Of a stretch of 64,000 bases of DNA, positions 6,323 to 62,324 are shown in pieces. Position numbers and translations under genes: made by a program. Source of the stretch: Cyanidioschyzon merolae (Eukaryota); assembly GCA_000091205.1 (NCBI GenBank), contig AP006491.2; one strand, written 5' to 3'. The notes under the pieces were generated by a model. That model saw only the letters and a list, made by a program, of their open reading frames with translations, was not told the origin of the DNA and did no database searches. The first letter of the stretch is position 1. The number at the start of each line of letters is the position of its first letter.

Positions 6323-7235
6323 TTTTTCCATGGCTCTGTATTATCTGGAGTCGGGCGTGATGGACGCCAGGCGGCATGCCAGCGGGTGGAATAGCGGCGT
6401 CAGACCCGATGATAGCGCTCTGAGCACCTGAACGAGTTGAGCGGGATGCGTTGTGCGCGCCACTCACAGAGCGTACAAGAGCGTGTATCTGGCTCACGTG
6501 GGCTATCCCTGGCAGGTTTCCATGAGACCGCATTGAGATCGCCAACCAGCTCGGTGCGATGAAACCACGAGCGCGCACCAGCTCACTTCTTCAATGGAGA
6601 GCAGAGGGAGATGATCGACAATTCGCGTCGTTTGGCGGTAGCCTGTGGCGCTCGACGCGCAGTGCTGCGCACAGGCTGTACTCCCGTGCCTTCGACGGCG
6701 GCGTGCAACGAGTGCACGAGTCGATTCTGCACTATTGCTGTCAATGCGAACAGGGCGATGGACGCGCATCACAGGCAGGGGTGCACGCTGGAGCTGGTAG
6801 AGAGGAACAGCGTAGAAGCGTGTCGGATGCACGGGCTGGTCAACGGCAAACTGACCGGGCGTCAGTTGACGAGGCCATCGAAGATAGGAGACTTGCTATG
6901 CCGCGGCTCGATCCGCAACAAGTGCACATGCACTTGCTGCACCCAGACCTGAGCGCCTCGATCAACTTACGGAAATGCCGGGAGCGTTCGGAGCGTCCCG
7001 CGGCATTGTGTCGAGCGAACTCTTGAGGGAATCCTTTAGTGCTCAGTGGAGGTATTGTGCTGGGAAGCTGATGCGTTGCGATGAATACGAATCGGTGGTC
7101 AGGTGGGCGGACATTGGATATCCGCCCTGGGCGAGTCGCTGGTGTAGCACGGGTCAGCGAACCGGAAAGGCTGGAGCATTACACAGATGTATATAATGGG
7201 AACCTTTTCTCCTGGGTGATTGGTGGACCACAATG
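6323..7235 (+). repeat. R1 repeat: third, partial copy of the outer ~0.9 kb of the 32-40 kb inverted-repeat arms
   Basis: ORFs 6503..6832(-), 6559..7026(+), 6611..6952(+) and 6975..7196(+) translate almost identically to 39816..40145, 39872..40339, 39924..40265 and 40288..40509. Near-identity stops at ~6323. A diverged continuation is visible upstream: acatagaaaacgcaagtctcag at ~5845 versus acacagaaaacgcaagtctcag at ~39219. Confidence 0.85.
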
Positions 7236-7528
7236 AAGCTGGATAATCCCATATTACCGCGTATCCGTATTCCGACGCTCCCATGACTTTACGTGCATCG
7301 CATATGAACTCTACAGCCACGTCGCGCTGCACTGTCGCAGGGCCTGGGCCCGTACGCGTTCCGCCATCCCAGCTATGATCGCATAACCGATGCGGGCCGC
7401 TCATCGTTTCGCGTTCTGGGCACGCGGTCACCGCGATTCGCGGTAACATTACAGACCAGCTTTTTAACATTTTTTGTCTCGGTGACTTCGCGAACGGTGC
7501 TCACGACGCGAGTTACTTTACATAGGAC

Positions 7529-11780: not shown

Positions 11781-11839
11781 CATGGTGTCTTACTTTCGCG
11801 AGTCCTAGCTTTTGCGGGAAGGTCCTCACCTAAACGAAT

Positions 11840-12363: not shown

Positions 12364-12709
12364 AATATAGTGTTGGACCGCAGGCCATACTATTACCCTC
12401 TGTGAAGACGAACATCCCACTTCTGGGTTTCACTCGAGCGGAGCGAATGCTTCCCGCTCGGGGCATGCATCGGCACGTACTCCATGCAGCGCGTTGCGCA
12501 GCCGTCGTAGCACTGGCGCGCAGCTCGTTGGATTGTGAACTGGACATCGGGGCGCTGCGCGCTGCGCGCCAGTGTCCAATCTCCGGTAGCATGATGATCG
12601 CTGGATGCGTCCAGGCCAGGCGAGCGTGCTCATCTCCGTACGTGCGCAGGCGTGTGTGTCTGGATGTGCGTACATACTTTTTGCTGGAACGCCGGTTATT
12701 AAAGGCCGC

Positions 12710-20509: not shown

Positions 20510-20544
20510 GGAAGATTGGAGTTCTCATTAGCCCGAAAGTCAAA
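20510..20544. promoter_or_regulatory. 35-bp head-to-head intergenic spacer (putative bidirectional promoter/5' UTRs)
   Basis: It lies between the ATG of the DUF3228-like gene (20509, minus) and the best-supported ATG of P5C reductase (20545, plus). Confidence 0.4.
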
Positions 20545-21372: not shown

Positions 21373-21459
21373 AAAGGGGGCATGGCCTTCGTCAGACTGA
21401 ACCGTAACATAGTGGAACGAGAATTGTTTTAAGACCGCAAAACCAGAAAGTAATTTCTC

Positions 21460-22284: not shown

Positions 22285-22303
22285 TTAGATTTAGGTTTCG
22301 CTC

Positions 22304-24811: not shown

Positions 24812-25238
24812 AAAAACTCTAGTATCCGAGGTCGATTTCCTTCAAGTCAATGCGTTCCGGTTCGTCGTCTTATGCGCAAGTTGTGGAAGCTACGTGCTGT
24901 ATTCCGTGTTGCCGCATTTAGGTACGCATTCGCATCCAGAGCGCTCTTTGATGCGAACCGGTCCGCAATATGCAGCGCACATGGCAAGGACTCACACCGT
25001 CAAAGCACGCCGAGCTTCGCACATGAAACTTTTCGAAAGCTGGGAAAGATAATTTGCTCGTCGGTTACCGGACGGGCATCCAGAAGAGACGTATCGACCT
25101 TGTCGAGACATCAAAGGTTTTAGGTTTCTCGTTGCAGCGTCAAGTCGCGCGGACACAAATCCAAGTTTCTTAAGATGATCATCGAGCGGTCGAGGTGGTG
25201 CTCTGTGAGAATAAAGCACATCGCTCGCATCGGTGCTC

Positions 25239-28991: not shown

Positions 28992-30419
28992 ATGAGCCTG
29001 CCTGCCCGGGTGCCGTCTAATTCTGCAGATGATGAGCTCCACCCTTACACAAGGATTTTGTCCCCACGAGAAAACCTGCTCGGAGGTGAGCCTGTCGGTA
29101 AGTTTGGCGTCCCGCACTTGCGACAGTTCTTTGAACATATAGGGCGCTTCCCTTCGCCCCTTTTGACGGCGACGGAGACGCACTCTCTTGGAAGGTCATT
29201 CATACCCGACGATGAGACTGTGCTCGTGGACATTGTGACCAGATGGGGTGAACCGTCTCCATCACGCGAATATATGCGTTCTGGTCCACGGGAGTTTCTT
29301 GCATTTCATCCGCAAACGGTTCGCGCAGCTATTGTTACTTGTGGTGGCCTTTGCCCCGGTATTAATACGGTAGTGAAAGAAATTTACCAATCGCTACGCA
29401 ACATCTATGGCGTGAAGGAGGTTCACGGTGTACAAATGGGCTACCGTGGCTTTTACACTGCCGAGCTCGATACCATTCTCTTGAACGACGTGTACCTGAA
29501 GGGAATACAACATCGTGGTGGCAGCGTTCTGGGCACCACAAGAGGCGGCTTCGACTTAGGGCTGATTGTCGACTCGATTGCTTCCAGGGGTTTCAATCAG
29601 GTGTATATTATCGGCGGGGATGGCACGCATCGAGGCGCATACAAGATCTTTGAAGAATGCATCCGGCGGAGACTCATGGTTTCCGTCGTTGGCATCCCGA
29701 AGACAATTGATAATGATATTGCAATCATCGACCACAGCTTCGGATTTGTTACTGCTGTCCAGGAAGCGCAGCGCGCTATTCGGGCTGCTTACGTAGAGGC
29801 CACCTCCGGATACAATGGAATTGGACTCGTGCGTCTTATGGGACGAAACTCGGGCTATATCTCTATGATGGCTACGCTGGCGGCCGGTGACGTTGACGTC
29901 TGCCTCATACCTGAGATCGACTTCGACCTGGATGGGCCTCACGGCTTGCTTGTGCATATCGAAAATCTGCTTCGGCACAAGAAATACTGCGTCATTGTGA
30001 TTGCGGAAGGAGCGGGACTGCAGTATACTCAGAATGCTCAAGAAGAGAAGAAGGAAGTTGACGCGAGCGGGAATATTAAGATGCAAAATGTGGGGCTGTG
30101 GTTGGCCGAGAGGATCAACAGTTGGTTCAGCCTCCGAGGAATTGAGGTCAACCTGAAATTCTTGGATCCGACCTACGAGATCAGATCAGTTCCCGCCGTG
30201 GCGACTGACAACATTATGTGCACGTTGCTGGCGCAGAGCGCAGTACACGGAGCTATGGCTGGATTTACTGGCTTTACATGCGGGACGGTGAATACACACC
30301 ACGTCATGATACCGATGAAAGAAATTATCAGCAGAGGGCGAAATCGTGTGGATCTCAGCTCCCGTATGTGGCATCGAGTGCTCGCGGCGACCATGCAGCC
30401 ACCACTGAAGAACAAGTGA
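28992..30419 (+). CDS. PFK: 6-phosphofructokinase, plant/trypanosomatid-type PfkA clade (GGDG, so predicted ATP-dependent)
   Basis: Four PfkA motifs are present: AIVTCGGLCPGINTV, IIGGDGTHRGA, GIPKTIDNDI and MGRNSGYISM. Confidence 0.9.
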   Translation: MSLPARVPSNSADDELHPYTRILSPRENLLGGEPVGKFGVPHLRQFFEHIGRFPSPLLTATETHSLGRSFIPDDETVLVDIVTRWGEPSPSREYMRSGPREFLAFHPQTVRAAIVTCGGLCPGINTVVKEIYQSLRNIYGVKEVHGVQMGYRGFYTAELDTILLNDVYLKGIQHRGGSVLGTTRGGFDLGLIVDSIASRGFNQVYIIGGDGTHRGAYKIFEECIRRRLMVSVVGIPKTIDNDIAIIDHSFGFVTAVQEAQRAIRAAYVEATSGYNGIGLVRLMGRNSGYISMMATLAAGDVDVCLIPEIDFDLDGPHGLLVHIENLLRHKKYCVIVIAEGAGLQYTQNAQEEKKEVDASGNIKMQNVGLWLAERINSWFSLRGIEVNLKFLDPTYEIRSVPAVATDNIMCTLLAQSAVHGAMAGFTGFTCGTVNTHHVMIPMKEIISRGRNRVDLSSRMWHRVLAATMQPPLKNK

Positions 30420-32041
30420 TGTCACTGGAGAGCTCCGTGTCTATGCGCTCAATCATGTATGTCGAAGGAAACGGGTTCTGGTTGGTGGCCCTTTCACAAT
30501 AACTGAGATTGCCGAGACTTTGCACGCCCAGAGCGGAACTCAGGTTCCAGCGTATAGTTTTCGAGACCAGGAACTATGGAATATGCTGCCAGCCTGCTCA
30601 AGTAGTCCGACGAGGAGATGTCGATGCCAGAATTGAGAGCCTTTCACGGTAAATGTATGGCGAAGTCTCATTTACGAGTGCAGCTCTAAAGCCGTGGTGG
30701 AGCGATTCAGCGGGCTAAGCCAGAGGCTTCCATACGAAGATGGGTCGCTCCACAAGGAATCGGTCGACGACTGATCCTCGGAACGCACACAACATTGGAG
30801 AATCCCGAAGAGCACCATCACTCAGGAGGCCCAGGAGTGAATTGTGCGATGCGCTCAGCCAGCCGACATCGTTCTGGTGACCAGGCAAACGCACATCCCG
30901 CATCTGTCTGCCCTGAAAACTCAATCCCCAAGACCACTGCCGACGACATATGGTGAGTTGCTATGCACTCATGGCCCTTTCTGACAGCATGCCACGGACT
31001 TGGCAAACATCATGCGAAGGGTAACCTTTGCAGGATTTGCCGCTTGCCACCGAATACGGCAAACATGTCGAAACCAAGTGCTAAGGATATCTGTGGTAAA
31101 ATGCAGTGCTGTTCTGTGCTCTGGCACAGACTATTATAGGTGAAATCTGAACCGAAGTTTCTGCGACCTTTCTTCGAATAGAATGACCCAGCACCGCTGG
31201 TTCACTCAAGCCCAAAAGCGCAGAGCTTTTTGTGACCTGCAAGGAGATTTGGTGCGTTTCTGGGAGGCAAACCATGTACACATATTTGCCCAAAACATGT
31301 ATATGCATTTACACAACTTTACGTCCATAGACACATGTACACGGACACACGAGAATATCCGCATCTGCACGAAAGTTCACGCACACGTGCGCGACTAGAG
31401 GCATATACATACATAAATGCGGACGCAGCGATATACGCAAACACGCACTGCCTGAGGGACTATAGAAAACTTGGTTCTCTAGCCATAAACAACCGCATGC
31501 AACACCAATACTCGAAAGTAGTTCTTCAGCAGCGCAATGAACATGTCCAGGACGTATGAAAAAGTGCATGGCGATCTCTCCCGCGTCTATCGAGTACAGC
31601 AGATGAGTTGAAAGGCTTCCTTGTTTTCCACAGCGCCTCCGAAGCACAGACCAATGGCAGCGAAAACTGTTTCCAGGCGTCGCATGAGAGAGTCTCAAGA
31701 CAAGTACCGTCGGGAAGGGCCAACGCATCAGTTGACTTATACAACCGCGAGCACTATCCACTTGAATGCGAGATGTTCAGTTCGTCTTTGAGACATAACA
31801 TCCTGAACATTAAGTTTAAAATCGATAGCAAACAGGACCCAATGAAGCCTCTCCACATATGCTCGCGACCAGTTAGCCACGAAGCCCATGTCACAGACGT
31901 GAAATCTTTCAGAGCTGGTATGCAAAAGAATGACAAAACCTGGTTTGACGGAGCCATCGGACCAGCAGGAATGTCTTCGATTGGACAGATGTGATGTGCG
32001 TGTCGGGCATACTGTGTGGCACACATTCATATAGCAGCTCC

Positions 32042-34432
32042 ATCGTTCACCAATTGCCCAGGAGAAGGTTCCCATTACATACATCTTTGTAGTGCTCCAG
32101 CCTTTCCGGTTCGCTGACCCGTGCTACACCAGCGACTCGCCCAGGGCGGATATCCAATGCCCGCCCACCTGACCACCGATTCGTATTCATCGCAACGCAT
32201 CAGCTTCCCAGCACAATACCTCCACTGAGCACTAGAGGATTCCCTCAAGAGTTCGCTCGACACAATGCCGCGGGACGCTCCGAACGCTCCCGGCATTTCC
32301 GTAAGTTGATCGAGGCGCTCAGGTCTGGGTGCAGCAAGTGCATGCGCACTTGTTGCGGATCGAGCCGCGGCATAGCAAGTCTCCTATCTTCGATGGCCTC
32401 GTCAACTGACGCCCGGTCAGTTTGCCGTTGACCAGCCCGTGCATCCGACACGCTTCTACGCTGTTCCTCTCTACCAGCTCCAGCGTGCACCCCTGCCTGT
32501 GATGCGCGTACATCGCCCTGTTCGCATTGACAGCAATAGTGCAGAATCGACTCGTGCACTCGTTGCACGCCGCCGTCGAAGGCACGGGAGTACAGCCTGT
32601 GCGCAGCACTGCGCGTCGAGCGCCACAGGCTACCGCCAAACGACGCGAATTGTCGATCATCTCCCTCTGCTCTCCATTGAAGAAGTGAGCTGGTGCGCGC
32701 TCGTGGTTTCATCGCACCGAGCTGGTTGGCGATCTCAATGCGGTCTCATGAAAACCTGCCAGGGATAGCCCACGTGAGCCAGATACACGCTCTTGTACGC
32801 TCTGTGAGTGGCGCGCACAACGCATCCCGCTCAACTCGTTCAGGTGCTCAGAGCGCCATCATCGGGTCTGACGCCGCTATTCCACCCGCTGGCATGCCGC
32901 CTGGCGTCCATCACGCCCGACTCCAGATAATACAGAGCCATGGAAAAACTTGAGCAGCCTCATGTGCTTTCCATTCACTTCGTAGCGTCTGAGCGCTTCA
33001 CCCAGAGGTACGGCGATGTCCTTGAGGTTGATAGACCGGAGATTCACACCCGCCACGACGCTTGTCTCCTTCTCTCGGTTGAACTGTCGCAAAGCACCCT
33101 CTTTGCTCGATTCAAGCCTCCGTTTCACAAAGTGTGGGCAAATGGATATTCAGTGTGATCTTGACCCTCGGATAATTTCCCCCGGGTGCCCTCCCGGGTC
33201 CTCTTGTCATACGGATTCTGCTGTTCTGTAACCAACGGAATTTTCTCCATCTCCTAATGTTGGCGCGGTGCTATAGACGTGGACCCTATATCGCATGCCC
33301 GCTTTTCTTCCTCGGGGTTCAGAGGCACTGGATGGCCGCCGGCACTGAGACTTGCGTTTTCTGTGTATGTATCTCCAAGTCTTCGAGCGCTCTTCCTCAC
33401 CTGCTCTGTCGCGGGCACGCTCACGCACCGTAGTGCACCTGTCCGCCCCCTTGGTTTCACACGCGATCGGAGAAGCGGGAGTGCGGTTCAGGCCTGGTGA
33501 AGCAAGAGAACGAGTCGTCGTAGGACGGTGCTGCGGATGCAAACGAAGCGTCTATGGATCCGTGAAAGTAGAGACGGCGTTTGACGAAACAGAAGTCGCC
33601 TTCGGCTGGGTGCAACCAAAGAGCCTAGGTTGGAACGAGGGACAGCTCAACGCCAATCTCAATTGCAGACGCCCTGACCGCGTTTGACCGATGGAAAAGC
33701 GGCACTGCCGAAGAGCAGTGCAGAAGAATTCGGTACTGGGAGCTCACGAACCGCTTCGATGAGGAAATGGACCATTGAACGATCCTGTCTGTTTGGTGAT
33801 TTGAGGGCGATCCCAACTGAATCCGGGGGCGAGGCGCATGTCGTCACCGTACGCGCCTGTGCCATATTTACGACCAGCGGTGATCCGCTGTTTGAGCACC
33901 CATATCGAGGTCGACCATTTCGCTCGGATGATACCTCATCGAGTGAAACGGAGACCGGCCCGTTCTGTACTAACCGTGCGCGTTACAGCATGAGATCGGT
34001 AGCGCGTTATTCAACGCACGACGGTCTCCCGAAGAAGAGCGCTTTTTGCTCTGTCCATCCGTGTCTCTTGGTGGCCATTGTATCGAGGGCACGGAAGCTA
34101 CACATCCTGTTGGTTCGTTAGGAACGTTTCCGAGAGCACGTATGGAGTGGATTGGATTGACTGGGAGACAATTTTGTGTACCGAGTTTGATCGTTTCCGT
34201 CGTGATGCCCAGAACGCAGAATAAGTAGTATGAGGAGTGCGGCTCATGTACCAGCTCACCGTAGAACAACTGACTTGAGCAAGTAAGGCCGTGTGTCGGA
34301 AGCTGGCAGTCACAGCATAAAGCATTTCCGCGATCTTTCTCCGATCCACGAGATACGTTCCTCTTGGTGAATACCTGCGCGAAGAGAACAAAAGAGGGTG
34401 TGCTTGTAAAGATATCCTAGAACGTACTGCTC
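32042..34432 (-). repeat. IR2 left arm (2.39 kb), degenerate RT-like (non-LTR retroelement?) sequence
   Basis: It is the reverse complement of 38153-40542. Boundaries were read directly: atcgttcaccaattgccc at 32042 corresponds to gggcaattggtgaacgat ending at 40542, and gaacgtactgct ending at ~34432 corresponds to agcagtacgttc at ~38153. The ORF translations of the two arms differ at only a few residues. Confidence 0.9.
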
Positions 34433-34808
34433 TGCATACGGCATTTCGCTTGGGCTACTACTAACTGCGAGAGGCTTGCTGTCGGATGCGCGCTTTAGTG
34501 CGCTGCCCATGCAGAAAAGCTAAAAGACTGTATTCGCTCTTTACAGAGCTGACTGCTGCTCCTCGTGTGGTTCGTGGACCCTCTCGCTTCTCGGGCACGA
34601 GTGTCTGCAGGCCGCGCGTTGCACGTACCGAGAACAGAAAGCAGAACTGCTCGTTTGAGACGCTAGGCGCGGCAGGGAAACGAAAACAGTCGGCACTGTC
34701 CTGTGGTAGTCCCTGCTCCAGGGACTTTTGGCGGTGGCTCTTGAGCCAGTCCACAAACACTGAGCGTTAGCTACGAGAAAAAAGTGTGTTCTGGAAAGCC
34801 GGTGTAAA

Positions 34809-35372
34809 ATGGCGGAGCATCGAAAGCGCAAGCCGACGAAGTGTCTGCGGAATCTTCTCCTCACTGGAACTCCGGGAACCGGCAAATCTACAGTTGCTGC
34901 GAAGTTTTGTGCGAGAATGCGGTTGAACGTACCTGCAAACGACTGGCCTGTTCATATAAACGTCTCTGAACTGATCAAGGAGAACCCGTCGCGGTTCGCT
35001 GAGGAGTTTGATAGCGAACGCGACTGCTTCGTTATCAACGAAGACGCCGTAGTTGAGCACCTAGAGCCCATAGTGCAAAAGTGTAATGTGGTCTTAGAGC
35101 ACCATTCCAGTGACTGGTTCCCGGAACGCTGGTTTTCCCGAGTTGTGGTCCTGGCCAGCGCGACTGATGTACTGTATCGACGACTCGAGGCGAGAGGATA
35201 CACGACGGAAAAAGTGCAAGAAAACGTAGAAGCAGAAATCATGCAAGTTTGTGCAGATGAAGCGATGACGAGTTATGACCGCAAGATTGTTGACATTTAC
35301 GAGAACAATACTGAGGACGATATGGAGCGAATCGTAGGGAACCTCTGCGAATGGTGGTTGATCAGAAGTTGA
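34809..35372 (+). CDS. AK6: Adenylate kinase isoenzyme 6 (AK6/Fap7/hCINAP)
   Basis: The P-loop is NLLLTGTPGTGKST. The size (187 aa) and layout fit the AK6 family. Confidence 0.85.
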   Translation: MAEHRKRKPTKCLRNLLLTGTPGTGKSTVAAKFCARMRLNVPANDWPVHINVSELIKENPSRFAEEFDSERDCFVINEDAVVEHLEPIVQKCNVVLEHHSSDWFPERWFSRVVVLASATDVLYRRLEARGYTTEKVQENVEAEIMQVCADEAMTSYDRKIVDIYENNTEDDMERIVGNLCEWWLIRS

Positions 35373-36846
35373 TCTGTCGACAAGCAGCAACCTGCTGCTC
35401 ACTCGGGCAATATGGGCACTTGAATCTTGTGTTGCCCCTGGGCAGGCGGTTCACTGTTTCTTTGCAGAGCACGTGGCCACAGGGGAGCAAGTACGGCGGA
35501 TTCGTTGGAGTGCTCTGCTCTCTGGAAACTGGGCAGACGAATATAGAGTGGTATTTGTACTTCTTGCCCAGGTCTATCTCAACAGGAAGTTCTTCCCGTT
35601 GTGTCCAGGATTCACGCGTTGCGAGCAGTCGAGTAGCGCGCATCAAAACTGGCAGTGCTATCGTTCCGCACGCAACAACGCTGTACAGGGGACTCTCCTC
35701 GCTTAGATCGAGATGTGCCCAGAAACAACGCCGAAAGGATTGCTCGGCGTCATCGGATAGCGCAGAGGTAAAAAATGAGGCATATGGAGATTTTGCGATA
35801 CGCGATACGAAGGCAAAGCAACCCATAAGTTGCTGAATTTCCTTAGTCTGGGAACGCTGGAAACGAGCAAAATGCTGGCGGGCGTATGCCAGGGCCTCTG
35901 GTAGTCGCCTTTCCTGTAGATAATTGACGAATCGCAAACGATGAAGTTTGAATTCCAGTTCACGTAGTTTTTCGGCAAGCGCTTGACGTCCAGCGTTCGT
36001 GGGTACAGACGGGGTAGCGCTGTGCGGTATGTATGTCGAGTCCTGCATCCTTTGCGCCGCTGAGCTCTCCGAGGCGCCGTCCTGGCTATCGCTGCTTCGC
36101 TCTATCCAGGAAGAGACCCGCTGTGTCCAGAGAATAGCAGGCTCAAGCGTTCCGTGGCGAATATCGTTCAAAATAGCGTACAAATCCCTGAAAGGGAGTC
36201 GATACGTGTCCTCAAAGCTTTGGCCGGACTCTCTAGCGAAGGAGTCCGCGATATCGAAGTGACCTTCTCGATAGAGGTGCTCACCGATTGCTCGTTCAAG
36301 AAGTGTTTTCTCCAGCGGTTGAACATTGCATAGTTGAGAGATCTGTGGGTCAAAACAATTTTCCCCGCTTTTCGTGTACTTGGTAATTGCAGCTTTCAAC
36401 TCCTTCTCTCGTACAGACAGAGTCTCGAAGAGAGCCAAAACTTGTTGCTGAAACTCTGCCAACAGCAACTTGCGTGCTTCTACAGATGTCGTAGGCGACA
36501 GTATGGCGACTTGGAAGCGATCCAGAGCATCCTTCAGGTTCTGGCACGCGTCAAAACTGGAGCCCGAAAGTTTCTTCTGTTTCGCGACCAGCCGCACCAG
36601 GTCCGCCGCAACACTCACAAGTCCAGCGCCGCGTTCTTTTGGCAACTGGCCGCTCATCAGAGCCTGTGATGTCTCGGTGCCAGACATGTCGCCTCCTGGG
36701 GGCCTTTTCCACAAGCGCCGACACGAGAGTAACGACCTCGTATACCAGCACAGGAACCGTTCCAGGACACGCACTCGATCTGCTTCGTCTGTTGATGAGT
36801 CGCAGTCGATCGCGGCCGTCGCCCCTGTTGCGGCCCCCAGCAGCAA
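35362..36846 (-). CDS. RMD5: RMD5/GID2-type CTLH-complex E3 ligase subunit (LisH-CTLH-CRA plus degenerate RING)
   Basis: A LisH/CTLH-like region is present (LERAIGEHLYREGHFDIADSFARESG, LNDIRHGTLEPAILW). The C-terminus FVCPVSREQSTPTNPPYLLPCGHVLCKETVNRLPRGNTRFKCPYCPSEQ is collinear with RMD5. It overlaps the AK6 3' end by 11 bp. Confidence 0.8.
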   Translation of the reverse strand: MLLGAATGATAAIDCDSSTDEADRVRVLERFLCWYTRSLLSCRRLWKRPPGGDMSGTETSQALMSGQLPKERGAGLVSVAADLVRLVAKQKKLSGSSFDACQNLKDALDRFQVAILSPTTSVEARKLLLAEFQQQVLALFETLSVREKELKAAITKYTKSGENCFDPQISQLCNVQPLEKTLLERAIGEHLYREGHFDIADSFARESGQSFEDTYRLPFRDLYAILNDIRHGTLEPAILWTQRVSSWIERSSDSQDGASESSAAQRMQDSTYIPHSATPSVPTNAGRQALAEKLRELEFKLHRLRFVNYLQERRLPEALAYARQHFARFQRSQTKEIQQLMGCFAFVSRIAKSPYASFFTSALSDDAEQSFRRCFWAHLDLSEESPLYSVVACGTIALPVLMRATRLLATRESWTQREELPVEIDLGKKYKYHSIFVCPVSREQSTPTNPPYLLPCGHVLCKETVNRLPRGNTRFKCPYCPSEQQVAACRQINF

Positions 36847-37189
36847 AGGCGACAGCAGCAGCGTCGTGAAACAATACCGAGAGACGTCCCAGCGGGTATC
36901 AGTTGTTACTCCCCGAAATTACCATAGGAAATATGGCGCTGAAATATGCGGAAAAGAAAGCATCACGGTTGGCGCGACTTTTTCTGTCCGTGCTGACGCC
37001 CTGTTAAGCTTGGATGTTCATCGGAAGGGGCGCTGTGCTCCAGTAGATTCATGTTGCAGCGCTGCGGCTGTTGTATCTCTTTCCGAGAGATAAGATGTGG
37101 AAATTCTCGTTATGTGCCGCTCTTGTGCACTGAACATGCGTCTTGAAACTTGGCAATACATTGCCTTGGCTCGTGGGAGAGTGCATGCA

Positions 37190-38150
37190 TTAGACGCCTT
37201 CAGCCGTGGTCAGTGCATGTCGATGGTGCCGTGGTGACTGGGAGCAATCCGCCATGGTGGCTGATAATTGCGCAAAACCCCGCTCAATACGGAGCAAAAT
37301 ACGTCTGGCGCTCGAATCCGCACCGTCACCACAGATATAGAGCCCGTTGGCAACAAGCGAGTCGCGATTATGTCCCACGTTTGGACTTGGTTGCATCGCG
37401 CCTGCGGTTAATGTGCATGCTTGCAGCTATTGCCGCGTTTGCGCCGGGCATGCGTGCCCGCCTGAGGCTTCCCCTCGTTATGCATTTCCAAAGCGCACTC
37501 GGGATTGCGCAGCTGCTACTTCAAGCACACACGAGCCCGAGGACGGCCGCCGCCATAGCATAGAGAAGTACCGCTGTTCGTGAATGCCGCCAGAGAGGTC
37601 CCCGAATGCAGCCTCTCTTCTGAACGAGGATTACTGTTCGGGAAGTCCAAAAGGATGCTCCTCTTGGGGGCTTGTATCGAGCGTTCGCAAGATTTCTCCT
37701 GACACGCGCTCGGAGGACAGCAATGCAACACCGGCCCGAGTGGTCAGCGATCTTTCAACTCCGGGGGCACTTTCGCTCTACCTACCAAACTGTCGATGGT
37801 CTGGACGCATGAATAAGCTGCTAGATTCCGGACTTTACGACGCAAAACAACAGGTTTGCGTCATGGTACAGAGGTGCGCCCTCGGTAGAGGTGCCTGAAG
37901 GACCCATTCCATGCCAGGCTGAACACCAGAACGATACGGCGCAGAAACAACCATCACGCGTTCAGATGATGCTGGTTAGATTCAGGAAGCCAGAAGTACC
38001 CACATCTGGGAAGCGGCTTGAGCTCCTTTGGACAGAGCTGCGTATGCTTTACTGGCAAGTGGGTCAATTAGAGTCCAGCCGAGCCAGTGACTCTCCAGCA
38101 GGACGTGCACACGATGCTGATTTCCGGTTTGTCGGTACGCGTTACATTCA
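37190..38150 (-). pseudogene. Fragment of an FAD-dependent oxidoreductase-like gene (COG2509-like?), with in-frame stops, cut off by IR2 right arm
   Basis: A single minus frame reads ...GVALLSSERVSGEILRTLDTSPQEEHPFGLPEQ*...DSLVANGLYICGDGADSSARRILLRIERGF. The GLYxxGDGA terminal FAD motif is present, and the upstream part is xGHSARD-like. There are about 5 in-frame stops. The expected N-terminal dinucleotide-binding part would lie beyond 38152, where the repeat arm begins. Confidence 0.3.
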
Positions 38151-38152
38151 AA

Positions 38153-40542
38153 GCAGTACGTTCTAGGATATCTTTACAAGCACACCCTCTTTTATTCTCT
38201 TCGCGCAGGTATTCACCAAGAGGAACGTATCTCGTGGATCGGAGAAAGATCGCGGAAATGCTTTATGCTGTGACTGCCAGCTTCCGACACACGGCCTTAC
38301 TTGCTCAAGTCAGTTGTTCTACGGTGAGCTGGTACATGGGCCGCACTCCTCATACTACTTATTCTGCGTTCTGGACATCACGACGGAAACGACCAAACTC
38401 GGTACACAAAATTGTCTCCCAGTCAATCCAATCCACTCCATACGTGCTCTCGGAAACGTTCCTAACGAACCAACAGGATGTGTAGCTTCCGTGCCCTCGA
38501 TACCAATGGCCACCAAGAGACACGGATGGACAGAGCAAAAAGCGCTCTTCTTCGGGAGACCGTCGTGCGTTGAATAACGTGCTACCGATCTCATGCTGTA
38601 ACGCGCACGGTTAGTACAGAACGGGCCGGTCTCCGTTTCACTCGATGAGGTATCATCCGAGCGAAATGGTCGACCTCGATATGGGTGCTCAAACAGCGGA
38701 TCACCGCTGGTCGTAAATATGGCACAGGCGCGTACGGTGACAACATGCGCCTCGCCCCCGGATTCAGTTGGGATCGCCCTCAAATCACCAAACAGACAGG
38801 ATCGTTCAATGGTCCATTTCCTCATCGAAGCGGTTCGTGAGCTCCCAGTACCGAATTCTTCTGCACTGCTCTTCGGCAGTGCCGCTTTTCCATCGGTCAA
38901 ACGCGGTCAGAGCGTATGCAATTGAGATTGGCGTTGAGCTGTCCCTCGTTCCAACTTAGGCTCTTTGGTTGCACCCAGCCGAAGGCGACTTCTGTTTCGT
39001 CAAACGCCGTCTCTACTTTCACGGATCCATAGACGCTTCGTTTGCATCCGCAACACCGTCCTACGACGACTCGTTCTCTTGCTTCACCAGGCCTGAACCG
39101 CACTCCCGCTTCTCCGATCGCGTGTGAAACCAAGGGGGCGGACAGGTGCACTACGGTGCGTGAGCGTGCCCGCGACAGAGCAGGTGAGGAAGAGCGCTCG
39201 AAGACTTGGAGATACATACACAGAAAACGCAAGTCTCAGTGCCGGCGGCCATCCAGTGCCTCTGAACCCCGAGGAAGAAAAGCGGGCATGCGATATAGGG
39301 TCCACGTCTATAGCACCGCGCCAACATTAGGAGATGGAGAAAATTCCGTTGGTTACAGAACAGCAGAATCCGTATGACAAGAGGACCCGGGAGGGCACCA
39401 GGGGGGAATTATCCGAGGGTCAAGATCACACTGAATATCCATTTGCCCACACTTTGTGAAACGGAGGCTTGAATCGAGCAAAGAGGGTGCTTTGCGACAG
39501 TTCAACCGAGAGAAGGAGACAAGCGTCGTGGCGGGTGTGAATCTCCGGTCTATCAACCTCAAGGACATCGCCGTACCTCTGGGTGAAGCGCTCAGACGCT
39601 ACGAAGTGAATGGAAAGCACATGAGGCTGCTCAAGTTTTTCCATGGCTCTGTGTTATCTGGAGTCGGGCGTGATGGACGCCAGGCGGCATGCCAGCGGGT
39701 GGAATAGCGGCGTCAGACCCGATGATGGCGCTCTGAGCACCTGAACGAGTTGAGCGGGATGCGTTGTGCGCGCCACTCACAGAGCGTACAAGAGCGTGTA
39801 TCTGGCTCATGTGGGCTATCCCTGGCAGGTTTCCATGAGACCGCATTGAGATCGCCAACCAGCGCGGTGCGATGAAACCACGAGCGCGCACCAGCTCACT
39901 TCTTCAATGGAGAGCAGAGGGAGATGATCGACAATTCGCGTCGTTTGGCGGTAGCCTGTGGCGCTCGACGCGCAGTGCTGCGCACAGGCTGTACTCCCGT
40001 GCCTTCGACGGCGGCGTGCAACGAGTGCACGAGTCGATTCTGCACTATTGCTGTCAATGCGAACAGGGCGATGTACGCGCATCACAGGCAGGGGTGCACG
40101 CTGGAGCTGGTAGAGAGGAACAGCGTAGAAGCGTGTCGGATGCACGGGCTGGTCAACGGCAAACTGACCGGGCGTCAGTTGACGAGGCCATCGAAGATAG
40201 GAGACTTGCTATGCCGCGGCTCGATCCGCAACAAGTGCACATGCACTTGCTGCACCCAGACCTGAGCGCCTCGATCAACTTACGGAAATGCCGGGAGCGT
40301 TCGGAGCGTCCCGCGGCATTGTGTCGAGCGAACTCTTGAGGGAATCCTTTAGTGCTCAGTGGAGGTATTGTGCTGGGAAGCTGATGCGTTGCAATGAATA
40401 TGAATCGGTGGTCAGGTGGGCGGGCATTGGATATCTGCCCTGGGCGAGTCGCTGGTGTAGCACGGGTCAGCGAACCGGAAAGGCTGGAGCACTACAAAGA
40501 TGTATGTAATGGGAACCTTCTCCTGGGCAATTGGTGAACGAT
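38153..40542 (+). repeat. IR2 right arm (2.39 kb), degenerate RT-like sequence
   Basis: The plus-strand frames give, in order, EQQNPYDKRTREGTRG (~39360; QxGFxxGR-like), VVAGVNLRSINLKDIAVP (~39520; xxDxxKAFDxV-like) and GWNSGVRPDDGALS (~39690; GVRQGDPLSP-like). There are many stops. The assignment is weak. Confidence 0.4.
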
Positions 40543-40749
40543 AGAGGTGTTATATCATTGGATACTAGTAAGAATACTCGGGATATAACGAGAGCGTTTG
40601 GTAGCATTGCTACAACGCAGGATCGGAGTCCTGGTTATGCATTGAAATATTAAATAACTCTCAGCGGAAACCTCCGAGGGCGTTTTCAAATCAAGAGGGA
40701 AAACGGTTCGCTCGGAGTCTACACCTGTGTGACACTAATACAGAAAACT

Positions 40750-41958
40750 GAAGAGCTCGCTCTCTTCATGCCTCGAGATTTTCCCGACCTTATTCAGCTG
40801 ACGTCCAATTACAAGGGTTCGTAAAGTAACCGATATCATCATCCTGTTCATACGGCCAGGCCAAGCGTCCACTCGCCTCGTTTTTTTTTCTGTTTAGCAT
40901 GCTCGAATCAAGCAGACTACAAGCTTTCGCTCTTTCTTTTTCAGAGGTAACTCGTGAGCGTAGTGATCTGTGCAACGGGATTGATGAGTAAAAATACTTG
41001 ACGTCGCCCATGCGCGACCTCTTCACAAGCTCATGCCGAAACTTCACTGAATTTCTCCCGTTAAATGATAAATTACGTTCGGATTACAAATTCAGCTCTT
41101 TTTGTGGCCATTTACGAAGCGGTATTCAATTGCTGTTGGATAGCTCTCACGGGATATGCTGCCAGAGGCTCCCGTCTCGTTGGTTTGCAGGGAAAAGAGT
41201 TTCGGACTGGGACTAGAGACATCGCTGCGGTCGCTCCCAGTGTAGGGAGTGTAACGATTTTGTACGACGCGAGCGTAGAACGGATCGAAATCCATCGATT
41301 TCTTCACCACCCTGGATTTTCGTTCCGGAACTTGTTTCAGTACGCAGAAAGTAGCGTTCCACAAATCCTCTATCCAATGGAGCAGCATGCGCTTACGTGT
41401 GCTGCGGACGGAGCATTCGCAATGGGAATCGCCCAGAAGAAGCCTTTGATCATGTGATAGGGCAGCAGGCGTCGAAAACAAAGACCGCATCAGGCGGAGC
41501 CTTCTAGACCGGTAAAGGGCGTGTACCGAGCGTTGAAGGAAGCGTTCACGCTTCACAAGGCAACCATCGGAGGAGCAGTAACGGCCGACACGTGGGATCA
41601 CTTCAACTCTGTTAAATGTTACCGCTACGAGGGGCGACTTGGGGCTGCGTTCGAATGTGATGAAAATAGCAAACAGACTGTAGATCGCTTCTTCCGCCTG
41701 TGTATGAAATGCATCACCAGCAGCAGCAAGCAGCAGAGTCGGGACTTGAGTAGCGCCATCCACATCCTTCCCCTGGTGACATCGAAGCTGATGGGAACGG
41801 AGAGACCACCATAGAAATCCGCATATTACAGTGGAAAAGTAAGTAGTGGCAGAACGAGCCTACAAGACTAATGTTGATGATAGCGCGAAGAGACCCAAAC
41901 GTCTGCTCGTACGTTCCTGTTAGCTAGACGGGACTCGTTCCGTTTTAGTGTGACATGG
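40750..41958 (+). pseudogene. Y-family TnpB/Fanzor-like relic (diverged solo copy)
   Basis: The plus-strand translation reads ERIEIHRFLHHPGFSFRNL, then KKPLIM*, then TWDHFNSVKC (41593-41619), then FFRLCMKCITSSSKQQSRDLSSAIHILPLV (motif at 41737-41778, with one CxxC retained). The antisense ORF 41092..41763 shares SVHALYRSRRLR with the 229-aa antisense ORF of arms A and B. Confidence 0.5.
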
Positions 41959-42281: not shown

Positions 42282-43706
42282 ATGAAGGTTCCATTCTGGC
42301 TATTTGCACTTATGGTTGCTTTGGTTTCGTTCAACGGGTGCAATATAGCGAAACCCGCTCAGTCTTGCCTTGGCTCGGGGCTCGCAGGCTGCTCGGCGCA
42401 GTTGTATTCTGGGAACCGGAAGGGTTGGTTCAGCGTATCCGGCTCCGTACAGGATACAATATTTACTCAGAATGAGCTTGCATCAAGCTTGGAGAGACTC
42501 GTCAGCCACATAATAGAACCTTTCCGAAATGCAACAGCGGAGGAGCTTCGCCACAGACTACGCACACTGTTCGAGCGCAAGACGTATCGCGTAACCCCGA
42601 ACGGTGCACGCAAAGCCGAAGGTTGTGTCGTCTGGTCGTGGCAGGGAGGAAACCTTACGTTCAACGCACCGACAGAGACGGAAACGATGATGCACCGCAC
42701 GAAACCTTTCTGGTACAATCGCTTACGCTGGACGTGGGAGCTGTTTGAAGCGATAAAAATGCCCAGAGACGACTTTGAGATAGCGCAGTGCCTGCATGAC
42801 TGTGTTCAGACTGTTCGAAAGGAGCCGCAGTTCGCCAAAATGCCTCGGTATCCCGAACCTGGACCGATTCCAATTCTCAGTCTCATCCAGTGCTGCGGCA
42901 TTAGCGATGATATTCCCGCACCAGTTTTTGAATCTGGCAGACCTGGCCCGAGAACGATTTTCTCAACTGGTCTTCGCGACTGGGATGTTGCTTGCGCGCT
43001 CCAAGCTGCTTCTGCTTTACCGTGGGCGTTTAGACTGCCCAAGGCAGTCTTCCGCGGCTCCGCTCGAGAATCTCTAGAGGAAACCAGACTTGCGACCGTC
43101 TCTGGGCGGAGAGGAATCCACGGACGCAGAGGGTCGAACGCGTATGGCCGGCGAGCCCTGGCAGAGCATGGCCGCCGACACCCAGCATTGCTGGATGTAC
43201 TTGTCACAGAATCCGGGGGCAACAGAAGTGCCGGCGGCTTTATGTCTGTCCGGAAGTTGGTGAACTACCGCTACTCTGTGCATGCTGAAGGCAACTGTGG
43301 CTGGGCAGACCGCTTATGGTGGCAGCTACACGCTCCGCAAGTGCTGCTAAAGCAGCGATCACCGTGCGGTCTGTACTTCGAACCCCTGATGAAGCCATAC
43401 AGAGATCACATCCCTGTCTCTGGGTCATTTGACGACCTCAGTCGCAAAGTAAAGTGGCTCCAGCGCCACGAGTCGGATGCTCTCGTAATGGCGACGAATG
43501 CAATGAGATTCGCGGAGGCGTACCTCGTTAGACGGAGCATACTCAAATACTTTGAGATGGTCCTAAACCAGTACGCACAAATTTGGCGACATCATTCTTA
43601 TGGAGATCGCGGGCACTTCCAATCAGGAGGTGGTGGCGCTGAATGCCTTCGACCTCGTTTCGACTTTTGGTTCTTAGAAGAAAAAAGGGATGCAGATGCG
43701 GGATAG
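42282..43706 (+). CDS. CAP10-domain glycosyltransferase (GT90, POGLUT/KDELC-like), secreted/ER
   Basis: The N-terminal signal is MKVPFWLFALMVALVSFNGC. The CAP10 core is AVFRGSARE...YRYSVHAEGNCGWADRLWWQLHAPQVLLKQ...YFEPLMKPYRDHIPVSGSFDDLSRKVKWL. Confidence 0.8.
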   Translation: MKVPFWLFALMVALVSFNGCNIAKPAQSCLGSGLAGCSAQLYSGNRKGWFSVSGSVQDTIFTQNELASSLERLVSHIIEPFRNATAEELRHRLRTLFERKTYRVTPNGARKAEGCVVWSWQGGNLTFNAPTETETMMHRTKPFWYNRLRWTWELFEAIKMPRDDFEIAQCLHDCVQTVRKEPQFAKMPRYPEPGPIPILSLIQCCGISDDIPAPVFESGRPGPRTIFSTGLRDWDVACALQAASALPWAFRLPKAVFRGSARESLEETRLATVSGRRGIHGRRGSNAYGRRALAEHGRRHPALLDVLVTESGGNRSAGGFMSVRKLVNYRYSVHAEGNCGWADRLWWQLHAPQVLLKQRSPCGLYFEPLMKPYRDHIPVSGSFDDLSRKVKWLQRHESDALVMATNAMRFAEAYLVRRSILKYFEMVLNQYAQIWRHHSYGDRGHFQSGGGGAECLRPRFDFWFLEEKRDADAG

Positions 43707-57531: not shown

Positions 57532-60500
57532 AGCTACGGATGTGGCGGCAGCGAATGCCGCCGCCACTGCCGCCGCCGCCGCCTGGACGCACGCACGCAC
57601 GCAGGTGTCTGTTCGTGTGCGCGGTGCGTGCGATCGAGGCCTGTATGTGAGGCCGGCGAGCGCTGCTGTTGTGTTTGACGGGAAGCGCGAAGCGCTGCAT
57701 GCGCGCAGCGCCTCATCGATCTCATCGAACGATGGACAGGCGCGCTTGCGCACTGTACGCCAATGCGGGAGATGGAGGATGAGCGGTGAGGCCAGGAGCG
57801 CCTCGGTGTCTTCGGGGTGCGTCTGGGGTGCAGAGCTGCGAGGCAAGCGGCTGGCGCGTCCAACGCGAGATCGTTGTGTGTCAGTGTCGGGCGTTTCGTG
57901 GCGTGACTTGGCGGTGCTTCAGGGAGTTATCCACGTGCGAGGTATCCGTTGTCGATCGGCGGAGGACGCTGGTTCTGGTTCGCGCTTCTCTCTGTGCGTC
58001 ACTGAGACAGGGGGCGGTACTGCATGGCATCGATATTTAATACCTGGATTGGCTGAATCACTTGAAATGAACTTCTGACCTGGCATTAGTCTGTGCGCCT
58101 CCAGTCCTGTTTGATAGACCATGATTGAATTGGATCCGATGTGAATGGGCAGAAGTGACTGACTCTATGAAGTTAATGATAAGACCTCACCCGCTGATCG
58201 AAGTTTTCGGTCAGTGAACACAGTATCTGTTCTAGCGGGGGGTCTTATGGGTTGAAATATACTCTGAGGAGTGAATTCCGGACCGAATGTAGCAGCACGT
58301 CCTCTTTGATTTTTATGTGTCTCTTTCGCAGGTATCCGACATAAGGAAAGTGTCACGCGGGCTGGAGAAAGGTCGCGGGACGTTTTATGCTGTTACTGCT
58401 AGTTTGCGAGAAAACATTCTTACTTGTCTATATCAGTTATTCAACGCTGAGTAGCTGGATAATCCACTCTTCTCGTCGTCCCTGTTCCGAACGTCGTGCA
58501 CCCAAAACGGTGCTTGACAGACGCGATCTACTCGACCCTATCATCGTCGATCCATTCTACGCCGTAACTTCTCTACGAAATGCGACTAGACAAGCCACAG
58601 GATGGCACGTTGCTGTACGGTCCGTGCGAACAGTAATGAAGTGCCACGGATGGATGAAGAACGAAGCGCGACTCTAGAGGAGAACACTGCGCGTTGAACA
58701 GCACGCCAGCGATTTAGCACGGAAACGCGAACGCGTATGCCGGGATTGACCGATGTTTGTCTCGGTCACCCTCGATGGGAGATTATGATGGGGGTCTATG
58801 TGGTATTCCTCCATATGCGTAATGCAAGACAGGGGCTAACCAGTATCCGTCAAGAAGAGACAAACAGCGTGCATGACAACGACACAAGTCCTACTGGCTT
58901 TGCTATCATCGTGTGGTCACTTCCATATCGCCAAACGGACTAGTCCGTTCAACACCTCGTGCACCATCGAAACAGTGTTTGGCTTCACCGCCTCACGCAT
59001 GCTTTTGTCCTGCTCTTTGACAACGTCGGTTTTCATCGCTCATGAGCGTTCAGGGCGCACACCGCTGGGGCTGCTGTTCAGCTGCGCTTCATACCAGCAT
59101 CGATATCCGGGTTCAAGGCAGTCGAAGGCGTCATCTGTGTTGCGGAGCGTCTTTTGCGGACTGGTGGATCAATAGACGAGTCGTTCGGATCTGTGGCCCC
59201 GTTCTTCGACGAATCTTTCTGTACGAGCCTCACCAGCGCTGAACAGCTCTGCTGCTCGTATGCTGTTGCGCAGCAGGGGGCGGAAAGGCGCGCGTCGGTC
59301 CGCGAGCACACTCGCGACAACGAAGGCGACCACGAGGTGCATAAGGAGAAATAGACGCACACGTCGATAGGAAGTGTGGGCTTCAATTCCGCCGCCCACC
59401 GTGTGCGTATGGACTCTCAGGGAAAAAACGTAGACGAACTGCCGCGAACGCCTGTTTGTTGTCGCACCAAGTTTCGGCGAAGGACAGGATACCAGGGACA
59501 CGGAGGTGAACGGTCCTCCAGAAGAGACGGCGAGCAGGTACCGGAAACAGACACCTCTGGAGCGGAAAGTCGAGTCTGAGCCGAACACCACGGCCGCAGT
59601 ACCGAACACACATCGTTTGGGAGGATCTCCCAGACAGTGCGGTGCAGGGTGCCTTGGCTAGTCGCGTGGCGTCTTTCTAGGATACGGTAGGCCTAGTGTC
59701 TCTCGCTTTGACGCCCCTCGTCAAGCAGTAGTTTGTTGGAGTTCCGGATGCGAGGCTGAGCTGCCAGCGATGCACATTCTGCGGGAATACTTGAATCCAA
59801 CCTTCGTGCGACGACACAGCTGGTACTCGGGACACAAGATGCACTGGGGCCTGATCGTGGAATCCGAGGACACCACAAACGCTTCCCAGCAAATACCCTG
59901 AGGTGTCGCTGCGCCAGTTCGGCGCTCGTGATATCGTCAGCGCAGGAGCAGAAACGTATGAGAAAATTACCGTCTAACGAACCGGAATCGTATGCGAGTC
60001 CGAGTCGAGCGCTGCATGAGGCGCATACTGTGTCCGTTGGGCCCGCTGTAGCTTCGCTTTACGAGTGGCGAAAATTGGGGACGGACACGAGCGGTATTTG
60101 GAGTGCGGCTGGAGACTGCGGACGAGCTGGCGGTGGCGGAAGAAGCCGAAGCTGTAGCGAGTGCGGAAGCGATCTCGCAAGGAGCGCGAGACTCGCTTCA
60201 GAGTGTCGGAGCATATCGAGTTAGTCTTGGCCTCGAGGTTACGGAAGTCGTACCTGGGGGCTGGTTGGAACGTGATGTCTGTCTGCGTTTCATCGTGGGG
60301 TAGAAGGTTTTCCGGAACAAAGCCCTGCAGAGCAAAGCCGACTACCTCATCGAGTGCGAGCGCCCTAGCCGCCTCAAGCATCTATCTGGTGTGATCCGCG
60401 TATCTCAGATCAAGGCGCATGACCGCACCGTAGACGCCCGTAGAGTGTATGACGGCAGGGATGAGCGACCACTGGTCTCTGAAGGCTGTGACGACACATG

Positions 60501-61020
60501 GAAACAGCTTTGCGAAGAGCGTCGGCCGATGTTGTCCAAAGCTTGTGGTTTGCAGGCAGGGCACGGGAAGCAGTTTACGGGGATGATGAAGTCCGACGGA
60601 ACATCAATCTGGGTGCGCTTTGTGAAACCTATAAAACTCTTGAAATTGTTGAAACCCGCGAAACCTAGATCTGTGCCGAGCAGCGATAATAATTCCGAGC
60701 CGTTCGAGGCGGATGAAGAGGACGACTCTGTAGCGGGCTTCGATTCTAGGTCGAGGTCGCTCGTAGTCGTTGCGGTATCTCCGAAAAGGAAGCAGACAGC
60801 GCCCAGATTCTGAACGGAAAACGAGTGACGCCGCTTAGTTTTTCCAGAGCTCATAATTCACGGGAGTCAGGTTCCATGGACAAGAGGAGTCATCCCCACA
60901 AATTGAATGACGGCATCAGGACCCGTTTTTGCGTGCCGAGCACCGTGCCGTGCAGAGGCGAATGCTCCGCACGCGGTTTTCAGAGCGTCCATGTGCGTGC
61001 GGACGACACTCAGCAAGCGA

Positions 61021-61120
61021 GCATGAGCATAATCATAAATATAAATAAGCTTGAGCACGAGCACGAGCACGAGCAAAAGCATGAGCATAATCATAAATAT
61101 AAATAAGCTTGAGCACGAGC
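61021..61120. repeat. 58-bp tandem duplication (1.7 copies)
   Basis: gcatgagcataatcataaatataaataagcttgagcacgagc occurs at 61021 and again at 61079. Confidence 0.85.
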
Positions 61121-62324
61121 TTGAGCTTGCACTGAGGCCGCCAACGATTTCGGTTGAACGGAGGCAAGCAGCGTGCACTCTCCTACTCTTTCACTGACTT
61201 GGCAACGTAACTGACCGATACTTCGCGTCGCGTGGTATGGTGGAGGTCGTGTATTGCGCGGCATGTTCTGTAGCACGCAATGGTTGCCCGCCTGCTCGCT
61301 CGATGGAGGCGCGCAACAAGTGGAGGCACCGATTCTGCTCGATTCTCGTTGATGCGCTCGGGACGGCATGTGTGCACGACGAGCACGAGTACACGCTGGA
61401 AAATATAGAGAGGAAGAGTGTGGAACGTTGATGGGCGCACGAGGTCTTGTGCGGGAAGTTTATCGAACGTCAGATGCCGAGCCAATCGCAGGCGTGATGC
61501 TCGCTATGATGCATCTCCATAAGCAAGGAGGCACGCGAGCACCCTCTGCACCACCGAGACGTCAACGCCTCGAAACAAGTCTGGAAATGTCTCGCGCTTG
61601 GGGACCATCCAACGACTGTGTGCTCGATGGAGCCTCCTGAGGGAGTCACTCTGCGCGCAGTGCGAGATTTGTGGTGAAACGCTGAGGAGCTCTGATGAAC
61701 AAGTCCGTGACCTGGAGAAAGGAGTTTTTTGATTCTCGCCTGGAGCAGAGCAGTGGTATTGAACTGTGCAGGAATGCAGAGAGCTCGGTATACCGCATAT
61801 TCAAGACCGCAACGGGTCTCCTGGGCAATTGTTGAAAGATAATGGTGGTCTGTTTGTCGATATCACAGAGTGTAATGTGAAGGATTCGAGAATCATGAAG
61901 GGTTTCCAAACATTTGGTCTGCATGGTGAGGTAAATTTAGCAGTATAGCTAAAGATCCAGAGGACTCCGCCACGAAAAACCGTCAGGACAGGATAACACC
62001 CCTCGCCGCTTGGGTCGTGGTTTTCTCCACACTTGATAAAAACGTTTGACGTTCTGTATCCTACATGGATCCGACGGGGGATTTCTTCGGAGTCTGTCCA
62101 CCACGGAAGGAGAATAGAAAAATAGAGCCCTCGAACGAAGAACGCATTCGGATGATCATCTCAATCAGTGGAATCAAGTCACAGAGGCAACGGATACAGA
62201 TCGGGCTTCCTCGGCAATCATGTTGCAGTCGCTGCGTACGGAATGCAATGCGCGTTGCAGCGCAGAACTGTTGCTGACGCGCATGGCACGTAGGAAGGAC
62301 CTCTGCGAGAAGCAATGCAAGGCT

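Follow-up and report, generated by a model that had tools for sequence, protein, structure and literature searches.

A 64,000-nt stretch of chromosome 9 of the red alga Cyanidioschyzon merolae strain 10D (referred to here as the window, whose positions serve as coordinates throughout) carries two copies of a sequence of about 2.4 kb, which flank the gene pair AK6/RMD5 in opposite orientation. The question raised by this inverted repeat, IR2, is how two nearly identical arms came to bracket two single-copy genes in a species that recombines homologous DNA efficiently and whose minimal, “unusually simple” genome serves as a model. The first-pass annotation of the window attributed the pair to an inverted duplication. 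We consider it probable that IR2 instead represents two whole, oppositely oriented units of a single repeat family (family B), which are lineage-specific insertions kept alike by ectopic gene conversion.

Arms, termini and family of the IR2 repeat

The arms, the spacer between them and the further copies of family B within the window are as follows, L and R being the left, phosphofructokinase (PFK)-side arm and the right, GT90-side arm, respectively.

32029..34437, plus strand: left arm, a complete family B unit in the PFK-AK6 intergenic region, with a 99%-identical core at 32042-34432
34438..38145, no strand: unique spacer of ~3.7 kb, single copy in the window comparison
38146..40555, minus strand: right arm, a complete family B unit in the RMD5-GT90 intergenic region, with its core at 38153-40542
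4734..7288, minus strand: copy 3 (c3), an old full-length family B copy whose inner part is 45-66% identical to the arms and whose outer 906 nt (6323-7228) are 98-99% identical to them
58262..61871, minus strand: copy 4 (c4), a diverged copy of 3.6 kb with ~1.1 kb of extra internal sequence and the same two termini

Self-BLAST aligned 32029-34437 with 40555-38146 over 2410 columns at 98.88% identity (26 mismatches and 1 gap), and a separate repeat search recovered the same L/R pair, broken in two at a 1-nt indel near 34080. Global alignment of the cores (2391 and 2390 nt) returned 99.0% identity, with 3 gap columns and 21 mismatches, 18 of which are transitions. The inverted repeat is real and its arms bracket AK6 and RMD5, much as the first-pass annotation had described: the ~2.39-kb arms with scattered differences, the paired open reading frame (ORF) variants GQGVCN/GQSVCN and SPGCPPGSS/PPWCPPGSS, the 3.72-kb spacer (3720 nt between the cores) and the convergent, overlapping arrangement of AK6 and RMD5, whose 3′ ends share 11 nt, were all recovered. 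In evolutionary terms, the arms are copies of each other and not two unrelated sequences. Computational alignment displaced their boundaries only slightly, the unit running 13 nt outward of the cores (to 32029/40555) and ~5 nt inward (to 34437/38146), margins in which the 10D arms are less alike. In several wild strains, the PFK-side and GT90-side copies nearly match over these outer 13 nt, and the start of the unit is therefore placed at 32029/40555.

The same annotation had proposed that both arms end at the same internal point of a repeat family and had suggested a search for the full-length parent. An nhmmer search with the arm as query identified c3 (7288-4734) and c4 (61871-58262), both oriented as the right arm, so that units of 2.41 kb (arms), 2.55 kb (c3) and 3.6 kb (c4) could be compared. 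In alignments of both ends, homology among the four copies starts at approximately ATATA.CA.CTC.ATCGTTCACCAATTGCCCAGGAG and stops at approximately GAA.GTAC.GCTC...AT. Beyond either end (60-300 nt), shuffle-controlled comparisons detected no significant similarity in any pair, the exception being 13/17 matches which adjoin the outer boundary and are confined to L versus R. The nhmmer envelopes had hinted that homology extends for 25 to 50 nt outside the outer end; the shuffle tests rejected this, save for these boundary-adjacent 13 to 17 nt. Because c3 and c4 share the two termini of the arms, both arm ends represent the natural ends of the family; the arms are whole units of a dispersed repeat family and are not cut at a shared internal point.

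The arms are non-coding in their present state. In Pfam searches, neither the 10 arm/spacer ORFs nor those of c3, c4 and the flanks yielded a domain, the sole signal being a sub-threshold HTH_38 match (E=0.015); no reverse transcriptase or other domain was found in the ORFs of the arms. A phmmer search with a 148-amino-acid arm segment against 1.84 billion representatives returned 0 matches, and a six-frame concatenate of the arm found none at E<=1e-3 among 5.8 billion proteins, a weak negative, since the search also missed arm ORFs that this collection is known to contain. Of the features expected of a cut-and-paste DNA transposon, the arms have neither a target site duplication (TSD) nor a transposase, and their terminal inverted repeat (TIR) score is no better than that of shuffled sequences. 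Those of long terminal repeat (LTR) or non-LTR retrotransposons are likewise lacking in the arms, which have no LTR, no reverse transcriptase/endonuclease ORF and, in the end alignments, no A-tail at either end. The arms are also without tandem, direct or inverted sub-repeats and without internal direct or inverted terminal repeats. Five ORFs of the window are identical to C. merolae 10D proteins, including BAM80043 (PFK), BAM80044 (AK6) and BAM80046 (GT90), and as these accessions run consecutively through PFK, AK6, (RMD5) and GT90, the arms carry no annotated gene.

An interspersed repetitive element was previously described as novel in C. merolae, with 253 transcribed copies of 3.2 kb on average occupying ~5% of the genome (PMC1955436), and has since been called “WSV repeats” (PMC5405695). 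Its defining trait is a truncated ORF with weak similarity to the WSSV protein WSV486 (BLASTX, 1e-5 to 4e-2; PMC1955436). Family B is probably one of these WSV-type repeats, for which it is a candidate member: as in the published element, the arms are dispersed, multi-copy, intergenic and without an intact ORF, and four family B copies with common termini occur in a single 64-kb window together with many pieces of a second family, family A. The kilobase-scale units (2.4 kb for the arms and 3.6 kb for c4, against a mean of 3.2 kb) render this assignment plausible and are not diagnostic of it. Nothing is said of inverted pairs, of subfamilies or of gene conversion in the published description of the WSV repeats (PMC1955436).

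Ectopic gene conversion among three copies

A probable explanation for the near identity of the arms is suggested by c3, which is a chimera. Compared with the arms, c3 is 99% identical over three 200-nt windows spanning 32229-32828, after which identity falls sharply to 45-66% with the alignment remaining collinear, and self-BLAST delimits the near-identical stretch to 6323-7228, matching the outer 906 nt of the arms. The identity of c4 to the arms ranges from 31 to 66% over 200-nt windows, mostly lying between 55 and 66%. The abrupt drop within an otherwise collinear copy indicates that conversion overwrote 906 nt of an old copy, up to the family terminus. The same chimera is present in three wild contigs (L049, L064 and L066).

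Further evidence was provided by multi-site haplotypes located no more than 60 nt from the unique flanks, namely a 13-nt terminal variant, CACCAATCACCC, an AA indel with ATTATATAC, and TGTGTAATGC. Owing to their proximity to unique DNA, these haplotypes are phased directly by k-mers, whatever the assembler, and their combination on each of the three copies (PFK side, GT90 side and c3) varies across samples and strains; in sample 3300050357, a c3-like terminus is found on both arms. As crossovers cannot move outer-end sequence from one flank to another, this flank-adjacent shuffling represents non-reciprocal conversion. Ectopic gene conversion therefore operates among three copies, the two arms and c3, over distances of 25 to 33 kb.

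The near-identical copies appear to be few. An exact 40-mer conserved in the arm-like copies compared was found in 8 JGI metagenome contigs only, all of them at these three sites, and the young subfamily consequently looks local and not the product of a genome-wide burst. A scan of IMG/VR with the arm 40-mer gave 0 matches, and exact look-ups of arm ORFs for further young copies returned the known sites only. In one wild contig (L045, 1-1171), arm-like sequence at the c3 site runs ~265 nt past the 10D patch boundary at 6323. Conversion may have reached further in that strain, or the assembly may have strayed into the collapsed arm.

For the wild strains, exact-protein look-ups and one DNA scan supplied dozens of JGI, ENA and Logan contigs. 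Independent metagenome/SRA contigs covering the locus are 99.2-99.7% identical to the window, and each of the four junctions (PFK flank-arm, arm-AK6 side, RMD5 side-arm and arm-GT90 flank) was recovered repeatedly. The absence of the structure from raw reads had been named as an outcome that would overturn it; the junctions are present in independent metagenome/SRA assemblies, that is, in contigs rather than reads. A Logan contig of 2393 nt (L042) corresponds exactly to a collapsed arm, 32042-34431, and since its ends coincide with those of the arm it independently confirms the boundaries. Each of the two arms is present in wild contigs that diverge from 10D by 0.3-0.8%. The 1.0% divergence between the arms slightly exceeds the genome-wide divergence of 0.71% between 10D and the Yellowstone strain MS1 (PMC13353863), which fits the presence of both arms in wild strains.

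As a separate observation, the ends of many independent contigs cluster at 36733-37050, within ~300 nt that immediately precede the RMD5 start codon; one of these contigs terminates with Illumina adapter sequence, and L015 turns into unrelated sequence at 36770. This clustering possibly reflects a drop in coverage, or transcript 5′ ends if some of the samples are metatranscriptomes.

Origin of the pair and alternative explanations

The genes required to place the arms in an ancestral context are listed below.

28992..30419, plus strand: phosphofructokinase (PFK), left flank, BAM80043
34809..35372, plus strand: AK6, adenylate kinase isoenzyme 6 homolog, AAA_18 domain, identical to BAM80044
35362..36687, minus strand: RMD5/GID2-type CTLH-RING E3 ligase, 441 amino acids from its ATG, with CTLH and RING domains
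42282..43706, plus strand: GT90 glycosyltransferase-like, right flank, BAM80046

Syntenic regions were reached, via RMD5 homologs (59-63% identity) and an FtsH homolog, in Cyanidiococcus yangmingshanensis (L053; GCA_026122185.1, a chromosome-level assembly), in a second relative (L037, a 190-kb contig) and in a further contig (L040). In the frame of the window, the relatives display the series PFK(+), AK6(+), RMD5(-), GT90(+), DUF1499(-) and MutL(-), in the order and orientation of 10D, and the coding parts of AK6 and RMD5 are collinear with those of Cyanidiococcus at 68-82% nucleotide identity in aligned segments. Intergenic gaps which measure 4.4 and 5.6 kb in 10D are of ~1.1-2.2 kb in the relatives, and nhmmer detected no family A or B homology in the relatives' syntenic regions even at E<=10. 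Because these gaps are short and free of the element, each arm is taken to be a lineage-specific gain in an intergenic region of its own, and both arms appear to have been acquired in the C. merolae lineage after its split from Cyanidiococcus. The shared gene order and orientation further indicate that the 10D spacer lies in its ancestral orientation.

It is, therefore, whole-unit insertion that we favor as the starting point of IR2. One family B unit of ~2.4 kb would have entered each of the two intergenic regions which flank AK6/RMD5, the gene pair keeping its ancestral orientation throughout, and ectopic gene conversion, as a form of concerted evolution, would since have kept the arms 99% alike along their whole length, the other copies being 31-66% identical. 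Such conversion may act on top of a local copying of the second arm from the first. This latter possibility is suggested by the confinement of the near-identical subfamily to these loci and is a weaker and different claim from inverted duplication; a second copy that may derive from the first and two older copies that were homogenised are both compatible with the data. The first-pass annotation had argued from the coincident ends of the arms for an inverted duplication and against two independent insertions. That argument does not hold, given that coincident ends are expected of whole-unit insertions and also of conversion between resident copies.

Several points weigh against the insertion-and-conversion reading. 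No TSD or terminal structure accompanies the arms, and what we infer about how the units first inserted comes only from the common ends of the dispersed copies together with the unoccupied sites of the outgroups. The outgroups are distant (59-63% amino acid identity for RMD5), and as such can neither date the insertions nor tell whether they were simultaneous. The census of copies derives from metagenome assemblies and one exact 40-mer rather than from a complete 10D genome, and homogenisation to within 5 to 13 nt of both termini somewhat exceeds the sole documented tract of 906 nt. Finally, as regards membership of the WSV repeats, searches with arm proteins gave no similarity to any protein, in a comparison which did not include the WSV486 sequence itself.

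Among the alternatives, the one that survives best holds that IR2 is a recurrently flipping segment: as the arms recombine homologously, the AK6/RMD5 spacer would be turned around, and strains, or individuals of one population, would differ in its orientation. We regard this as possible but rather unlikely. Contigs of both types exist, four of them (L007, of 15 kb, L013, L015 and L016) linking the GT90 flank via an arm to the AK6 side and one (L011) showing the 10D linkage of PFK flank and AK6 side, and C. merolae is known to recombine short intrachromosomal repeats efficiently (PMC13353863). The arms are, however, collapsed in these short-read assemblies, and contig orientation is consequently unreliable: one contig (L008) is symmetric about the spacer, another (L051) passes through an arm and the spacer and then re-enters the arm, L042 contains nothing but the arm, and L016 runs into an Illumina adapter at its end. 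Among sister samples, the alleles along the arm form differing mosaics of both 10D arms, the reciprocal junction (PFK flank-arm-RMD5 side) occurs in 0 of ~20 PFK-flank contigs, all of which stop at the arm, and 10D itself has the ancestral orientation. The apparent occurrence of both spacer orientations in wild strains was thus rejected as evidence on account of collapsed arms and sample-specific mosaics. An inner haplotype block which seemed reciprocally swapped between 10D and wild arms, a would-be signature of double inversion, was also rejected, being unphased and at least 188 nt from unique DNA. On general grounds flipping of the spacer is plausible, though undemonstrated.

An argument in favor of flipping comes from IR1, a second inverted repeat within the window.

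9709-12384 and 15843-18513, inverted: IR1, family A arms of ~2.6 kb around FtsH, 99.5% identical, with a 3.6-kb spacer
12605-15016: FtsH, within the IR1 spacer

IR1 resembles IR2 in its paired arms, its spacer of 3.6 kb and the presence of a third, partial, near-identical copy nearby. It belongs to another repeat family, of which nhmmer detects many fragments in the window and to which arm-B ORFs have no translated match there, and it differs from IR2 in the orientation of its spacer, which is opposite to that of the outgroups. In 10D, FtsH is inverted relative to both of its neighbors, RPT1 and a 685-amino-acid gene, in comparison with C. yangmingshanensis and the second relative, and a repeat-bounded, gene-scale inversion has therefore occurred at IR1. 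It could be supposed that the AK6/RMD5 and FtsH segments are naturally toggling micro-inversions operated by paired repeats, with both orientations present in populations and the repeats serving as the main engine of small-scale rearrangement within a genome that is compact and in other respects extremely stable, a generalization which we would advance only tentatively, its odds being well short of even.

A single-step inverted duplication, segmental or fold-back in nature, by which one arm was copied in inverted form across AK6/RMD5 with no insertion of a unit, would explain why the arms are 99% alike when their resemblance to other family members is far lower, as well as the restriction of the near-identical subfamily to this 35-kb neighborhood. 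A duplication of this type should include unique DNA or end at arbitrary points, whereas both ends of the arms coincide with the natural family termini, no unique sequence was co-duplicated and nothing outside the repeat unit is doubled. The spacer genes are single copy and in ancestral order and orientation, and gene conversion, demonstrated here, accounts for the high identity without a special duplication. The synteny comparison which the first-pass annotation had suggested, once carried out, revealed empty gaps and the ancestral gene order in two outgroup species, a result that fits poorly with such an event. We thus judge inverted duplication improbable.

Still less probable is an intramolecular, replicative type of transposition, in which a new copy of the element enters a target close by and the DNA in between is inverted. 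Its geometry, two whole inverted units around a short segment, is that of IR2, and it is also that of IR1, where the spacer is inverted relative to the outgroups; the IR2 spacer of 10D is not so inverted, no transposase, TIR or TSD was found in the arms, and this mechanism is not known to be established for any comparable eukaryotic element. A reference artefact, by which one repeat copy was misplaced twice in the assembly, can be dismissed, as the four flank-arm and arm-spacer junctions were recovered in many independent assemblies and the two arms differ at 21 to 26 positions.

Neighboring features and comparison with known systems

The insertion and homogenisation of two family B units thus remains the preferred account, and the other features of the window are recorded here beside it. 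The first-pass annotation had placed a decayed gene fragment in the spacer (~36850-38150), for which no Pfam match and no repeat homology was found; the remaining spacer ORFs beyond AK6 and RMD5 had no Pfam matches either, and Rfam and tRNA scans of the window gave no match. Between the right arm and GT90 lies a decayed repeat of another kind.

40801..41958, plus strand: decayed repeat between the right arm and GT90, related to 50703-51860, 323-1447 and the end of family A

With a length of ~1.16 kb and relatives at 50703-51860 and 323-1447, this repeat makes the RMD5-GT90 intergenic region a nest of repeats. A third, partial copy of family A at 23272-24820 is 99.35% identical to the IR1 arms and mirrors the pattern of two full copies plus one partial copy seen in family B. 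Between two family A copies of 10D, at 19817-23284, are located genes for a DUF3228 protein, P5C reductase, DER1 and a lysine methyltransferase, which are absent from the syntenic stretch of Cyanidiococcus; in their place (L053, 14085-14966) is an FKBP gene which is missing from 10D at that position. This difference looks like a second repeat-bounded rearrangement. At 54001-58000 the GC content is 0.63-0.67, compared to ~0.53 elsewhere in the window, with long ORFs overlapping on both strands and a weak V-SNARE_C match only, on 56371-57531 (+).

IR2 reveals ectopic gene conversion over 25 to 33 kb within the little-studied interspersed repeats of C. merolae, and, taken together, IR1 and IR2 associate repeat pairs with gene-scale inversion relative to sister genera. 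There are practical consequences: short-read assemblies break or mis-join at IR2, a primer or gene-targeting construct designed within either intergenic region can match two or three loci, and synteny comparisons at gene resolution may overlook inversions of 3 to 4 kb. The pair itself has no demonstrated function and is a potential substrate for inversion by homologous recombination. As a passive substrate of this kind, it could permit the 3.7-kb spacer to invert, an event which would leave each gene joined to its own upstream sequence.

The yeast 2-micron FLP/FRT and bacterial Hin/Gin systems share with IR2 the arrangement of inverted repeats around a segment, which in those systems is invertible. 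Unlike them, IR2 has neither a recombinase gene nor short, specific crossover sites; its arms are long, decayed repeats, no regulatory consequence would be expected of an inversion, and the spacer encodes only AK6 and RMD5, so that no site-specific recombinase lies in or beside the segment to drive a switch.

A closer parallel is offered by inverted low-copy repeats prone to non-allelic homologous recombination, which may be characterized by arms of at least ~1 kb with at least 95% identity and by sequence exchange between copies. The IR2 arms measure 2.39-2.41 kb at 98.9-99.0% identity, and exchange is evident from the c3 patch and the shared flank-adjacent haplotypes. In the human Xq28 FLNA-EMD region, inverted low-copy repeats mediate recurrent inversions by non-allelic homologous recombination. 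IR2 differs from that region in that its arms are whole dispersed-repeat units and not segmental duplications of unique DNA, and in that the presence of both orientations is undemonstrated at this locus. The two are alike in having kilobase-scale arms of ~99% identity around few genes, in the exchange of sequence between arms and in the gene-neutral nature which an inversion would have. IR2 is accordingly best described not as a new kind of element or mechanism but as an inverted pair of interspersed repeats under concerted evolution.

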